NCBI GenBank assembly: GCA_010356995.1
Contig: ML996692.1
Coordinates: forward strand, 507,933-571,932
Length of the DNA stretch: 64,000 bases
Direction of reading: 5' to 3'
Origin: Trichodelitschia bisporula
Lineage: Eukaryota
The position numbers were made by a program, and so were the translations under genes. This document shows, in pieces, positions 18,320-23,779 of this stretch. Below the pieces are notes generated by a model. The model was not told the DNA's origin. It did no database searches and saw nothing but the letters and a program-made list of their open reading frames with translations. Numbering within the stretch: the first letter of the stretch is position 1; every line of letters begins with the position of its first letter.

Positions 18320-18931
18320 CTACTCGCCGAAGGTCTCGCGTCCCTGCTCGAAGACCTTGTCAAAGTCAAACTCGCCCCACCGGATCTCGGGGCTGAGGCC
18401 AGCAAACTTCCACACGCCGTCGACCTTCTTGTACCAGTGCTTGTTGGTGCTGTGGGCGTGGCCCTTGACCGCCACCTCTTTGCGGGACGCGTCGGTGTAC
18501 TTCTGGTGCGGTACGCGCAGCTGGTGCCAGCCAATGATCTCGGTGTCCGACACCTTCTCCCACCTGGTGCCACCGATGAAGTGCTGCGTCATGAGCAGGG
18601 GGTTGCCCAGCACGGCGGGGTCGGAGATCATCTTCAGGAACTCGTCAGCCGGCATGGCTTCCCAGAGCTTGTCGAGGAAGGAGCGGTAGTCGACCTGTGG
18701 GGCTTGAGTCAGCACCGGGGCGTCTCGTGGAGGTCAGCAGAGAGGTGGTGACTGACGCGAATGGTCGGGGCGATGCACTTGGACAGACGCTCCCAGTCCT
18801 TGCTGTCATAGCTATCTGCCCATTCGAAAACGGCAGACATGCAGCCCATCACCTCTAGTTTTCGTTAGAACCATGGTTAAGCAGGGGAGGATCAGGCGTT
18901 CCGCACCCTCAAAGGTAGGATACGTAGTCAT
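18320..18931 (-). CDS. SCD1: Scytalone dehydratase (DHN-melanin pathway), 3 exons
   Basis: [32 protein letters not shown]...|[16 protein letters not shown]...[13 protein letters not shown]...[10 protein letters not shown]...[34 protein letters not shown] on the minus strand near 19026-19031. Confidence 0.96.
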
Positions 18932-20856
18932 GATTGTATGTAGAGCTTCGAAAAAGGGTACAAGTGTTGAGAGAACGGGACCTGGTGAGAGCGGACCTGG
19001 AGGTCAGATGCCGGACCGACCAGCCTTTATACGCGGCGAGGCGTTCAGCGCCGACACCGACACCGACTCCCCCACCGCACCGTCCGTCACTGATCCCCAA
19101 ATAGAGACTTAGCCCAGCTGCAGCATGCACGTAGCTCGTATCACGTCGACCTCCCGCGCCTCTCACACGCCAAAACGACTCCGCAAAGGCCACCAGCGAC
19201 ACAGCCCGCAGCGCCCGGCCGCAAAGAAACCACAGATATGCAATTATGCGGGCTGCGGCCCCTCATGCATGCCACTTGTAAGGTCCCAGGGCCTGGCGCC
19301 CCGCGCCCAGCTTCGGCTCCCCGACCTCCACTCCCTGCACCCGCTCATGGTAGGGTAGTACAGTACTATTCTAGCCGCAAGAGGCTGGCAAGGCTTCGAC
19401 TCGTAACTGCAAGAACGGACGACGGTTCTCGGACTCGACTTGGGGCTTTGTTCCGACGTGACGGCTGCGTCCCGTTGATGAGTATGGATTCTATGAGGGG
19501 AGGGGAGCCCCGCGCTTACGCACCTCAAGTTACCCGTAGTGCTGAGCTTGAGTTTGGGTGGTTGGGCGAGGCACGGCGGGGGCGTGAGACATGCGGAGGT
19601 TTTTTCGACGCACACTCGTACACTGCGCGTGGAGTCTAGATTGTGTTGATGTGCACAGGTCTGGGCTGGCGACTTGCTCAAACACTTCACCCTCAACATA
19701 CGATGATAGTCCTGCCCCACCGGGCAGTAACGGGTAGTGCCGAAACCCTCAACTCCCTAGAACTTCTACAAACCACTTCTTCTATCCAGTATCAAGCAAA
19801 ACAGCCTATCAAAACACGGTTGCCAGCCTCTGGTCTCCAGATACACAACCGCCCCCCGCCCCCACCTTAACTGCACCTCGCCCGCCCCGCGCAGACGACG
19901 ACCGCGTCCGTGCCCTCATGCATAGCGGGGCTCGCCAAGCGTCCAACCCGCGCGGGGCCCCCACCAGCCCTCAGGGACCCGCGCTCAGGCAGACTGGTGT
20001 AACACCCCTCAGAGGATTGCGCACGCCCTCGACCTGCAAGGTACGAACTTGCTGATCCAGGGTCAGGTAACGACACTGGGCGTTTGATATCATGACGGAC
20101 CGAAGAGTCGTATCTCCGCCGTCAGCAGGTCGTGAGGCTTTACGAGGCTTACTTGTGTATCGAAGAGCCTGGGCAAGCAGGTGCGGGGTAACTAGAAGAG
20201 CGGTGGGCGATGCGGGGGGTTAGCTGTATGCGCGGTGTGTGTATGCGGGAAAAGAAATGGGCGATATGTGCTGTTCCGCGGATGGAAGGTGGACTTGGTT
20301 CCAGTGGATACCGGGTCAGAGGATAGGTTTCTTTTTTTCTGGCGAGATGTCTGAGGGGGTTGGGCATTTTTGAGGATGTCTCGGGTTCGTGGTGGAATTT
20401 GGTGAAGGGGCCTGGAGGAGGTCAGCGCGGGGCAATGCATGAGTCGCTGGATTGAGGCCATCTGCAAAGCGAAGCTTGTGGCGCATTTGGTACCCCGCTT
20501 CGATGATTGACTTTGCGTACAACTTGTTCTCCGTTGTAGTCGGAATAATCAACTCACTTCAGCATCATCGGGGTCGACCGGAAGTCATGGGACGACAATA
20601 CTGCAGCTCGCGACTGGCTTGCTCCGTGATATCATGGCGTCCGCTTCACAGTGCACACTTCGAAGGACTTATGTCTTTGATCTTCCGTTCAAATTTTCAT
20701 TACTTTTGCTTAGGCATCGGCGCATGAAGCTACCAGCATGCAGAACCACATTGACGACATGGCCCTTCCGGAAGATGCCGCATATACAAGCTCTGAGGCA
20801 CCATCAAGCTCTCCAACGCTTCATGGCTTCAAAGTCTCGGTAAATTCCGCTACAGA

Positions 20857-22015
20857 TCACTGGGTTCGTTAGCACGAGCTGTATTGACAGGGAAACTCAT
20901 ACTTGGTCCTTATCCAGATCAGCGATTTGCAGCACCGCCTTGCCGAAGTTCTTCCCCTGGAGCATGCCGACGAAGCCTTCAGCGGCGTTGTCGATGCCTT
21001 CCGTAACGCTCAACTTGGCCTTGAACGACCCATCCGCAATCCACTTCTGCACCTTCTCCTGGTGCTCCGCGGTATACTTGGGCCCCATGTCTGCGTCGCC
21101 CACGATAAAGCCCTGGATCTTGAGGCGCTTGCCGATGACTTGGGCAATGTTCCGAATCGGATATTGTTCACTGGGAGGCAGATTGTACTGCGAGATCATA
21201 CCCGAGACGACTTTCTACCAGTCAGAACTCCACTGATCCTGCTGCAGGAGCAACTTACCGATGCGTCCATGGGGGTTGAGAGCGTCAATGGCAGCTTCGA
21301 GGGTCTCGCCACCCACGTTCTCGTAGTAGATGTCGATGCCATTCGGCGCCAACCGCTTTAACGCATCCGCCGGCTTCTCTTTCTTGTAGTTGAAGGCGGC
21401 ATCAAAACCCAGGTCGTTCAGGATATACTCCACCTTCTTGTCATCGCCAACGCTCCCAATCACCGTGAGGCCTTCCCGCTTCGCAATTGCTCCGACGACC
21501 TGGCCAACGGCACCACTGGCAGCGCTGATGAAGATGGTTTCCCCCTTCTTGGGTTTGCCGATTTCATACAGAGATGAGAAAGCAGTAAGGCCGGGCATAC
21601 CGAGCGGCCCGATGAAAAGCTTCGGGTCCAGGTTATGGGGGTTCTCGAGCTTCTGCGAGCGGCTCGTGGGACCCTCCTCGAGGACCGAGTACTCTTCGGT
21701 ACCGACGCTGTCGCCGATAATGATGACGTCACCAGGCTGGAACTTTTCGGTGCCGGAATGGATGACCTTGGAGATAGTCCGATTGGTGAAGGGCTTCCCA
21801 AGCTCGAACGGTGGTGCGTACGACTTCGTGTCCGCTGCGCGCATGCGGCCGCGCTGGTACGGGTCGAAGGAGACATAGAAGTTCTTGACGATGAGGCCGC
21901 CTTTCGGTGCCGGTTGGTCGAGGTCGAACTCGCGCTTCTCGACGGCAATGTGCTCTCCCGGGACTGGGAAGCCGGTCGGGATCTTCTTGAAAATAAGGCC
22001 TTTGTTCTGAACCAT
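20857..22015 (-). CDS. NADP-dependent alkenal/leukotriene B4 12-hydroxydehydrogenase-type oxidoreductase (MDR, PGR-like)
   Basis: SFDPYQRGRM, LGMPGLTA, ETIFISAASGAVG, GIDIYYENVGG, GMISQYN and GMLQGKNFGKAVL. Intron 21211-21258. A last intron starts at 20902 with two possible acceptors, so the CDS ends at 20857, 20829, or 20897 if the intron is retained. Confidence 0.93.
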
Positions 22016-22873: not shown

Positions 22874-23779
22874 ATGGCTCCCCAGGAGATACCTTCGGAG
22901 CCTCCTCCATCTTATGAATCTTCTGCTAAGCCATCGGCTGTTTCTGGGGCCGCTGGTGGACCTGCGAAGCCGGCGGGACCCCGCCCTCCCCTTCCCCTAA
23001 ACCTGCCTGCCTTGGTCAAGCTGAGGGGCAAACGAGTAATCCTGGCTTCTGCGTCACCTAGGAGACGCCAACTGCTGGCACAAGTGAGTCGGAAATCTGA
23101 TGTTGAGAGGGTCCAATGGTCTGACCCACGCAGATCGGCTTGAACAAAATCGAGGTTATCCCATCCAGCTTCGCTGAGGACTTCTCCAAATCCCTTTCAC
23201 CTTTCGAATATGTTGTGCAGACAGCGACGCAGAAGGCAATTTCTGTATACGAACAGGAGATTGACAATGAAGAGAAGGGTGACCCAGCGCTACTTATCGC
23301 CGCCGATACCGTAGTTGTGTCACACTACGGCGAAATCCTGGAGAAGCCACGCTCTGAAGTGGACCACCTGAGGATGTTAAAGATGCTGCGAGACACTGGT
23401 CCCCACAAAGTGTACACAGCTGTCGCCGTCATGGTACCGCTAGAAGGCGGTCAAAGCCCGGGTTACGCGCTGGAGACGCACGTTGAGGAGACATCTGTCA
23501 CCTTTGATTCGAATGGTGTGTCCTGTGTCCAGCAATTGATATATACTTATCCTACTAGTGACGGATGATCTCATCCTTGCGTACGTTCGGACCCGAGAAG
23601 GGGCGGACAAAGCAGGGGGCTATGGAATCCAAGGTCTCGGAGCCATTCTTATCGAGGGCATCAACGGCAGTTATGACTGCGTGGTTGGCCTTCCTCTCCG
23701 TGCCACCCTTCAACTCATCGAAAAGATCCTGACTCCGGATGAAGAAGGAGATATAGATGCGTTTGCCTTTGACGGCTGA
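22874..23779 (+). CDS. Maf/ASMTL-like nucleoside triphosphate pyrophosphatase, 3 exons
   Basis: RVILASASPRRRQLL, LLIAADTVV, ILEKP, ADKAGGYGIQG and CVVGLPL. Introns ~23084-23133 and ~23516-23557. Confidence 0.94.

Follow-up and report, generated by a model that had tools for sequence, protein, structure and literature searches.

In several fungi, a type 1 signal for peroxisomal targeting (PTS1) is added to the end of an enzyme at the level of the mRNA. The last intron of MDH2 of Yarrowia lipolytica (YALI0E14190g) contains two 3' splice sites 4 nt apart, which lead to proteins ending in either PAN or AKI (Kabran et al. 2012, PMC3372373); the sections of that paper used here report counts for both mRNAs (1181 versus 648 reads) as well as the localisation of both proteins. 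According to the accounts in PMC3798809 and PMC4207609, GAPDH of Ustilago maydis and PGK of Aspergillus nidulans acquire a cryptic PTS1 by differential splicing (Freitag et al. 2012), and the cited part of PMC4207609 describes a PTS1 reached by read-through of a UGA CU stop context in the aldehyde reductase Art1 of U. maydis (Stiebler et al. 2014). Here we describe an intron that lies directly before the stop codon of a putative NADPH alkenal reductase gene of Trichodelitschia bisporula, on the minus strand of a 64,000-nt stretch of DNA (hereafter the window; contig ML996692.1 of GenBank assembly GCA_010356995.1, positions 507,933 to 571,932). The intron is spliced in transcripts through a proximal acceptor, and a candidate distal acceptor 10 nt further on would extend the protein by a short tail ending in PRL, a PTS1-type tripeptide.

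By analogy, Yarrowia MDH2 is the closest known case for these tandem acceptors. As far as the published sections considered here allow the comparison, both genes have acceptors a few bases apart in the last intron, a frame shift decides the last residues, and the product is a redox enzyme; the upstream acceptor gives the form without a signal and the downstream one gives, or in our case would give, a weak PTS1 other than SKL (AKI in Yarrowia, PRL in the window, SKI in an orthologous locus, L002, where a 4-nt gap likewise separates the first two acceptors). The two genes differ in that only the upstream form is seen for the window gene, in that its acceptors are 10 nt and not 4 nt apart, and in that its upstream acceptor is followed by an immediate stop, the last exon containing no sense codon; the enzymes also belong to different families and the fungi to different classes. 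GAPDH and PGK, in the reports cited, resemble the proposed case as housekeeping-type cytosolic enzymes that gain a C-terminal PTS1 extension by alternative splicing, with the extended form being minor, but unlike the window reductase they are glycolytic and their targeting was shown by experiment. Art1, as described in the cited part of its report, is likewise a reductase with a hidden PTS1 just past its stop codon, and a minor fraction of the protein is extended, whereas in the window the stop context is TGA T instead of TGA CT and the signal lies in the +1 frame.

The tripeptides found in the distal frames of the window gene and of its orthologs also occur in two catalases that are treated in PMC13343957. 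In the sections cited, the -PRL end of the Histoplasma catalase CatP directs mNG into peroxisomal puncta, some of the signal remaining cytosolic, and the catalase of Ogataea polymorpha, compared to it there, ends in -SKI, a weak PTS1 with similar behaviour. As both tripeptides give partial import, they suit dual localisation, although in these catalases, unlike in the window, they form the regular C-termini of dedicated peroxisomal enzymes and not optional extensions.

A spliced intron directly before the stop codon

Altogether, 12 contigs from three sequencing runs could be placed on the window (four from X1, three from X2 and five from X3). X1 and X2 carry no RNA label on record, and their RNA nature was established from the splice joints. 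Three segments with GT..AG ends are skipped, namely 20860-20902 (X1, X2), 21211-21258 (X1, X2, X3) and 23084-23133 (X1, X2); because these segments are skipped, including the intron of a plus-strand neighbour at 23084-23133, we treat the X1 and X2 contigs as transcript assemblies. The joint between 20859 and 20903 is present in one X1 contig (depth 104.8, at least 255 letters on each side) and in one X2 contig (depth 327.3, with 30 letters on its shorter flank). The 43 nt missing from them have CT..AC ends on the plus strand, which corresponds to GT..AG on the strand of the gene, and the two other introns removed in the same contigs provide an internal control for the terminal intron. X2 lacks a contig over 20412-20829 and X3 falls short of the 3' end of the gene, and neither of these gaps was used as evidence. 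Since the X1 and X2 contigs join 20859 to 20903, we regard the existence of the terminal intron as practically certain.

Splicing mainly uses the proximal CAG. In the predominant mRNA, CAA is placed directly before TGA, the last exon supplying the stop only, and the resulting protein of 355 residues ends in DKDQ without a targeting signal. The deposited model has 356 amino acids (aa) and ends in DKDQV, one residue more than the spliced product, because it reads GTA TGA from unspliced DNA. Independent of any isoform, the deposited model thus has one residue too many, the terminal intron having been overlooked, which is what the original prediction, made from the sequence alone, had expected of standard annotation. 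The same prediction had described the elements of the intron and its two outcomes (GTATGA, GCTAAC, CAG at 20860, TAG at 20850, RNLPRL and DQV before a stop), and all of these coordinates and readings proved correct on the minus strand; the stop-adjacent 43-nt intron that it proposed is the one spliced in X1 and X2.

We take the motif GCTAAC at 20868..20873 to be the branch site, going by the fungal consensus. The spacing of 9 nt between branch A and proximal acceptor also occurs in the verified intron 23084-23133 and in the terminal intron of L002, and, being that of the neighbour's verified intron, it makes the proximal CAG the normal first choice. Skipping of a nearer acceptor does occur in the same gene. 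In intron 1, which is located at the same position in L002, the AAG at +11 from the branch A (ending at 21211) is used, and the TAG at +7 (ending at 21215) is passed over; the contig joint 21210/21259 thereby bears out the earlier claim that intron 1 skips a branch-proximal TAG.

The unspliced reading itself could be the functional variation, in which case the mRNAs encoding ...DQ and ...DQV would differ in their 3' untranslated region (UTR), stability or translation. The spliced and unspliced forms would both be productive, and the X2 contig breaks off 30 letters beyond the joint, precisely the point at which an unspliced path might rejoin if the assembler used a word size of 31. However, none of the contigs of X1 and X2 covers the intron, the two proteins differ by a single residue, and the local RNA fold around the intron is unremarkable, with a minimum free energy of -36 kcal/mol (z = -1.55; 13 of 200 shuffles fold as well). 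We therefore consider a role for intron retention highly improbable.

Table 1. Features of the reductase gene, its terminal intron and its neighbours, in window coordinates
Feature	Position	Strand	Evidence or reading
Scytalone dehydratase gene (melanin pathway), downstream of the reductase	~18323-18733	-	Pfam 6.2e-69
Short frame CGG AAT TTA CCG AGA CTT TGA (RNLPRL, then stop), +1 relative to main stop; stop at 20831-20829	20829..20849	-	PRL fits the PTS1 tripeptides given in PMC4207609
Candidate distal acceptor TAG (53-nt intron)	20850..20852	-	Sequence; joint 20849/20903 in 0 of 12 contigs
Stop codon TGA that opens the last exon of the main spliced mRNA	20857..20859	-	Sequence and contigs
Proximal acceptor CAG (43-nt intron)	ends 20860	-	Used in transcript contigs
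Terminal intron, 43 nt, phase 0, between the last sense codon CAA and the stop codon	20860..20902	-	Joint 20859/20903, one contig each in X1 and X2
Putative branch-point motif GCTAAC with the branch A at 20869, from which the proximal AG is 9 nt and the distal AG 19 nt away	20868..20873	-	Sequence
Donor GTATGA; the retained intron reads GTA TGA, giving ...DQV and stop	20897..20902	-	Sequence; deposited protein ends DKDQV
Intron-retained reading of exon 2 (open reading frame)	20897..21214	-	
Exon 2, ends ...ADLDKDQ (last codons GCT GAT CTG GAT AAG GAC CAA, ending at 20903; CAA at 20905-20903)	20903..21210	-	Translation and transcript contigs
Intron 1, 48 nt, GTAAGT...CTGAC...	21211..21258	-	Joint 21210/21259 in X1, X2 and X3 contigs
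Exon 1, ATG at 22015; 252 codons and the first base of a split Val codon	21259..22015	-	Translation, Pfam, X1 and X2 contigs
Intron of the Maf-like gene, 50 nt	23084-23133	+	Verified in X1 and X2 contigs
Maf-like gene	23134-23568	+	Pfam 3.4e-20

The distal frame and its candidate targeting signal

If the distal TAG were used, the protein would end in PRL, which matches the PTS1 tripeptide pattern taken from PMC4207609, a pattern that was fixed beforehand and includes PRL; the proximal frame consists of an immediate TGA. The match is one at the level of the tripeptide. Upstream of it, the tail of the distal form would have an R at -6 and acidic residues further upstream. The earlier claim that PRL is a PTS1 variant agrees both with this pattern and with the partial import reported in the cited sections on Histoplasma (PMC13343957). 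We also considered read-through of the stop codon as a route to a signal and rejected it, as the frames past the TGA end in ...LKP (spliced) and ...WRA (unspliced) and the stop context is the non-matching one given above. Since the PRL signal sits in the +1 frame, it needs splicing and not read-through.

A route to a peroxisomal form can be outlined on this basis. In a small fraction of splicing events, the CAG 9 nt past the branch A would be skipped in favour of the TAG 10 nt downstream of it, which would shift the frame by +1 past the TGA and add the six residues RNLPRL with the weak PTS1 -PRL at their end. Import through Pex5 would then bring a small part of the PRL-tagged reductase into peroxisomes, where the enzyme could act on reactive 2-alkenals, reducing those that arise next to H2O2-producing lipid oxidation. 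We put forward such a functional PRL-tagged peroxisomal isoform tentatively, holding its existence to be nearly, though not quite, as probable as its absence. The data fit a dominant cytosolic form accompanied by at most a minor PRL-tagged form, and the original wording, in which splicing toggles the enzyme between cytosol and peroxisome, was overstated.

If confirmed, the gene would represent another case of the known splice-site-controlled dual targeting. A reductase that detoxifies lipid aldehydes would join the short list of enzymes that are dually sent by the choice between close splice sites, and NADPH-dependent alkenal reduction would be placed inside fungal peroxisomes. A last exon that starts with the stop and holds no protein-coding sequence can mark a hidden C-terminal signal, and gene-model pipelines could search for this pattern.

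An alternative is an ordinary, constitutive stop-adjacent intron, in which case only the ...DKDQ protein matters, PRL is coincidental, and the distal TAG, if it is used at all, reflects noisy splicing without a selected function. This would agree with the presence of the proximal joint only in the contigs, and with the location of the CAG, whose 9-nt distance to the branch A recurs in another verified window intron. Coincidence is, on the other hand, infrequent for any single acceptor. Among all AGs on both strands of the window, 11 of 8155 (0.13%) precede a frame of at most 20 codons with a listed PTS1 end, and the fraction among AGs followed by 3-20 codons is 11 of 2869 (0.38%), so that a listed PTS1 in a short frame behind a given AG is expected by chance in only 0.13-0.4% of cases. 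The orthologs provide further evidence on both sides of this alternative, which we return to below.

Stop-adjacent introns and PTS1 ends in orthologs

A metagenome scan yielded 80 loci, of which the 30 fungal ones (L001-L030) were examined and the others (L031-L080, at most 47% identical to the query) were left out. A terminal intron whose acceptor is followed by an immediate stop is present in four of the 30 fungal loci, corresponding to three distinct sequences: L002 and L003, which are identical across the compared region (TAG then TGA), L020 (TAG then TAA) and L021 (TAG then TAA). The +1 frame of L002/L003 reads ENLKESKI before its stop, and is opened by AGs 4 and 13 nt past the proximal acceptor, which would give ends of ...NLKESKI or ESKI. 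L013 is an intron-less version of L020, amounting to an exact presence or absence of the terminal intron, with the sequence past the stop otherwise alike. L014-L016 end directly in SKL or AKL, and the remaining loci of this set (e.g., L001) have a plain stop.

Three further observations come from these loci. In L002 (2792-2885), there is a resemblance, in protein and in base sequence, between the distal +1 frame (N-L-K-E-S...) and the exon 2 end (D-L-E-K-E-S); a tandem duplication of the C-terminal coding segment may have left this trace and given rise to the terminal intron. At L005 (around 1216-1222) and in protein P0028, the ortholog ends in ...EKDQA and has GCATGA where the window has GTATGA; a single C/T change would thus divide a coded Ala plus stop from a working donor, hinting at a route of donor gain and loss. 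L012 and L018 have a strong donor-like GTAAGC or GTGAGT 1-4 nt past the stop codon, which may mark a 3' UTR intron whose register is slightly shifted.

At the protein level, we compared the best 120 relatives of exon 1, about one-third of which are exon-1-only fragments. Their ends are mostly ...QIADLEKE, EKDQ, EKDA and similar, and three are PTS1-like (AKL, SKL and SKI). A second set consisted of 120 exon-2-sized open reading frames (ORFs) called on mostly unspliced contigs. In 37 of these (three being doubtful), a V-led tail, mostly V-S, V-R, V-C or V-G, continues past the conserved end. Because V-led tails are what GT donors would yield on translation, a donor right behind the last codon is common in the orthogroup, and an intron exactly before the stop recurs widely there regardless of whether the isoform exists. 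The 83 ORFs without a V-tail include five that end directly in SKL, AKL (twice), SKI and SRL and 78 with a direct stop and no signal. Hard-wired PTS1 is common in the close orthogroup, with SKL, AKL, SKI or SRL ends in L014-L016, P0070, P0091, P0359, P0376, P0377, P0381 and P0402. In a quick tree of 90 rows, for which a length of 340-372 and the C-terminal motif were required and in which six outgroup rows have long branches, P0070 (AKL) and P0091 (SKL) are placed among orthologs without PTS1.

A second possible case of a +1-frame SKI comes from protein P0361, the tail of which, read through the intron, ends ...TNTLSETAKNSKI before the stop. By back-translation, T-N would fit the branch motif and L-S-E would fit an acceptor followed by TGA; the +1 frame obtained in this way reads ETAKNSKI before its stop, having the same length as the L002 frame and sharing five of eight residues with it. 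Four annotated Bipolaris species end in KESKI or NESKI (357 aa), and B. maydis and a transcript-length contig nearest to B. oryzae (seven differences) end in KES (355 aa); the KES and SKI forms interleave in the quick tree. Examples are the proteins XP_007704472.1 (KESKI) and EMD85550.1 (KES). Going by these protein ends, the KES/KESKI pair matches what two acceptors of one intron would give, and a simple nonsense difference could produce it as well. Full-length copies of both Bipolaris versions (P0056, P0123-P0133) lie on contigs 1.4-1.5 kb long that probably represent transcripts.

The -SKI end is therefore found in three diverged lineages, either in the same +1 frame (L002/L003, P0361) or as an annotated end (Bipolaris). 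Exon 2 is 77-80% identical among L002, P0361 and B. sorokiniana, and 68-71% identical between these and the window. Where a +1 frame past the first stop could be read, it is PTS1-like in three of eight lineages (PRL in the window, SKI in L002/L003 and SKI in P0361). The check proposed earlier, whether distal frames of orthologs have PTS1-like ends, is thus borne out in part: such ends occur in L002/L003 and P0361, and as annotated ends in the four Bipolaris species, and are lacking in five of the eight readable lineages.

The proposed module would be older than T. bisporula, given that the layout of an intron followed by an immediate stop is common to orthologs. One diverged ortholog group would keep an 8-codon +1 frame ending in -SKI, and others would hard-wire SKL, AKL or SRL, or have none. 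In its widest form, the proposal would make the stop-adjacent intron a targeting module of long standing, shared by the whole orthogroup of alkenal reductases in Dothideomycetes, with a weak PTS1 (SKI/PRL) in the +1 frame, acceptor choice setting the peroxisomal share, and lineages hard-wiring, keeping or losing the switch. We regard this wider version as rather unlikely.

The variety within the orthogroup, from hard-wired PTS1 through +1-frame SKI to the layout without PTS1, fits repeated gain and loss. Together with the missing distal joint in the contigs, it would also suit a relic, i.e., an ancestral PTS1 switch via the intron that is unused in T. bisporula and whose PRL frame is decaying. 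Decay does not, however, predict an intact PTS1 tripeptide in a 6-codon frame directly behind a good YAG acceptor. In addition, the PRL frame of the window is a sequence separate from the SKI frames and is without clear similarity to that of L002 by eye, leaving common descent of the tails unsupported. We consider a relic improbable.

For the ordinary constitutive intron, the orthologs cut both ways. L020 and L021, and judging from their protein tails also P0384, P0393 and P0323, have the same layout without a PTS1-like alternative, and many orthologs have a direct stop without a signal, both among the ORFs without a V-tail and at loci such as L001. On the other side, a +1-frame -SKI is kept at 77-80% protein identity, where untranslated sequence would not be expected to stay readable, and the orthologs ending directly in SKL, AKL or SRL show repeated selection for peroxisomal placement. 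An ordinary intron with a coincidental PRL is in our view a realistic possibility, though one that we would not favour outright.

Returning to the PRL-tagged isoform, a number of points weigh against it. The spliced contigs of X1 and X2 derive from one sample of one study (all pieces being at least 99% alike), and hence constitute single-sample evidence. They cross 20903 via the proximal joint without a break; because neither main contig is interrupted where exon 2 ends, the distal form is at most minor in this sample. The distal joint 20849/20903 is absent from all 12 contigs of X1, X2 and X3, in which rare forms drop out, and such contigs would be compatible with a distal form at the few-percent level, where read-through isoforms work. 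The original prediction had named both junctions, of which the proximal one was recovered in X1 and X2 and the distal one in none of the contigs. The chance level for the PRL ending also has to be read generously: since several candidate AGs, read-through frames or a looser tripeptide list would have been acceptable, a fair value rises to about one to a few percent. As for the signal itself, the cited sections of PMC13343957 describe import by the Histoplasma -PRL as partial and list PRL in none of the other Pex5-dependent proteins found.

The comparative evidence adds further points of this kind. In the wider family (150 representatives at 50% identity, 117 of them with the C-terminal GK motif), a direct PTS1 is present in three of the 117, one being AKL and two being doubtful VKL; the wider family thus lends no support, and the PTS1 signal is confined to the close orthogroup. 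The five readable lineages without a PTS1-like end comprise L020 and L021, where the layout is seen in the DNA, and P0384, P0393 and P0323, which share the x-S-E signature and whose +1 frames (ERIRG, EN and EYG, each followed by a stop) hold no signal; for these three, as for P0361, the splice layout was deduced from protein tails and not from DNA. Moreover, -SKI lies outside the pattern of PMC4207609 and was added after being seen, and the three SKI lineages probably go back to a single inherited state that has persisted despite considerable divergence, not to three events.

The enzyme family and neighbouring genes

The deposited T. bisporula protein P0003 (356 aa, 'NAD(P)-binding protein') is 100% identical to the window reductase. 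Exon 1 matches the Pfam families ADH_N_2 (PF16884, 5.3e-18) and ADH_zinc_N (PF00107, 1.6e-15), both above the curated cut-offs, and the two domains correspond to an N-terminal oxidoreductase domain and a zinc-independent ADH-type Rossmann domain. A sequence comparison with the PDB gave 29 sequences that match the reductase at E <= 1e-20, the top ones being ketone/zingerone synthase (4.3e-78) and Arabidopsis 2-alkenal reductase (1.4e-73), with residues 2-349 covered. Its nearest solved relatives are plant 2-alkenal/double-bond reductases (1e-73 to 1e-78) and animal prostaglandin reductase 1. NADPH alkenal/one double-bond reductase of the MDR superfamily (PTGR1/AER type) appears to be a fair name for the product by homology, and the original naming as an NADPH alkenal reductase is supported by these Pfam and PDB matches.

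The plant NADPH 2-alkenal/double-bond reductases and the animal PTGR1/LTB4 12-hydroxydehydrogenase (PDB 2j3h, 6eow, 4hfj, 1v3t and others) share the fold family and the domain pair with the window protein, which matches them over its full length; the substrates of the fungal protein, in contrast to those of its plant and animal relatives, are assigned from sequence. One narrow literature search returned no relevant report of an alkenal reductase with a PTS1 or of a peroxisomal form of one, and no case of splice-dependent targeting among the plant and animal relatives.

Downstream of the reductase lies a scytalone dehydratase gene on the same strand, and a Maf-like gene is located on the opposite strand (Table 1). 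The X1 contig runs about 850 nt beyond the reductase stop, to 20010, and X2 has a separate high-depth contig at 19524-20411, loose at its 19524 end. The region 19524-20859 contains no convincing ORF and may be a long 3' UTR merged with an intron-bearing 5' UTR of the downstream scytalone dehydratase gene.

Finally, the X3 set comes from another study (organism B, 2024 run). It includes a low-depth contig at 21069-21371 that is identical to the window across the intron 1 joint, along with pieces that are only 90-95% alike to the window. T. bisporula or a very close relative is present in the X3 sample.

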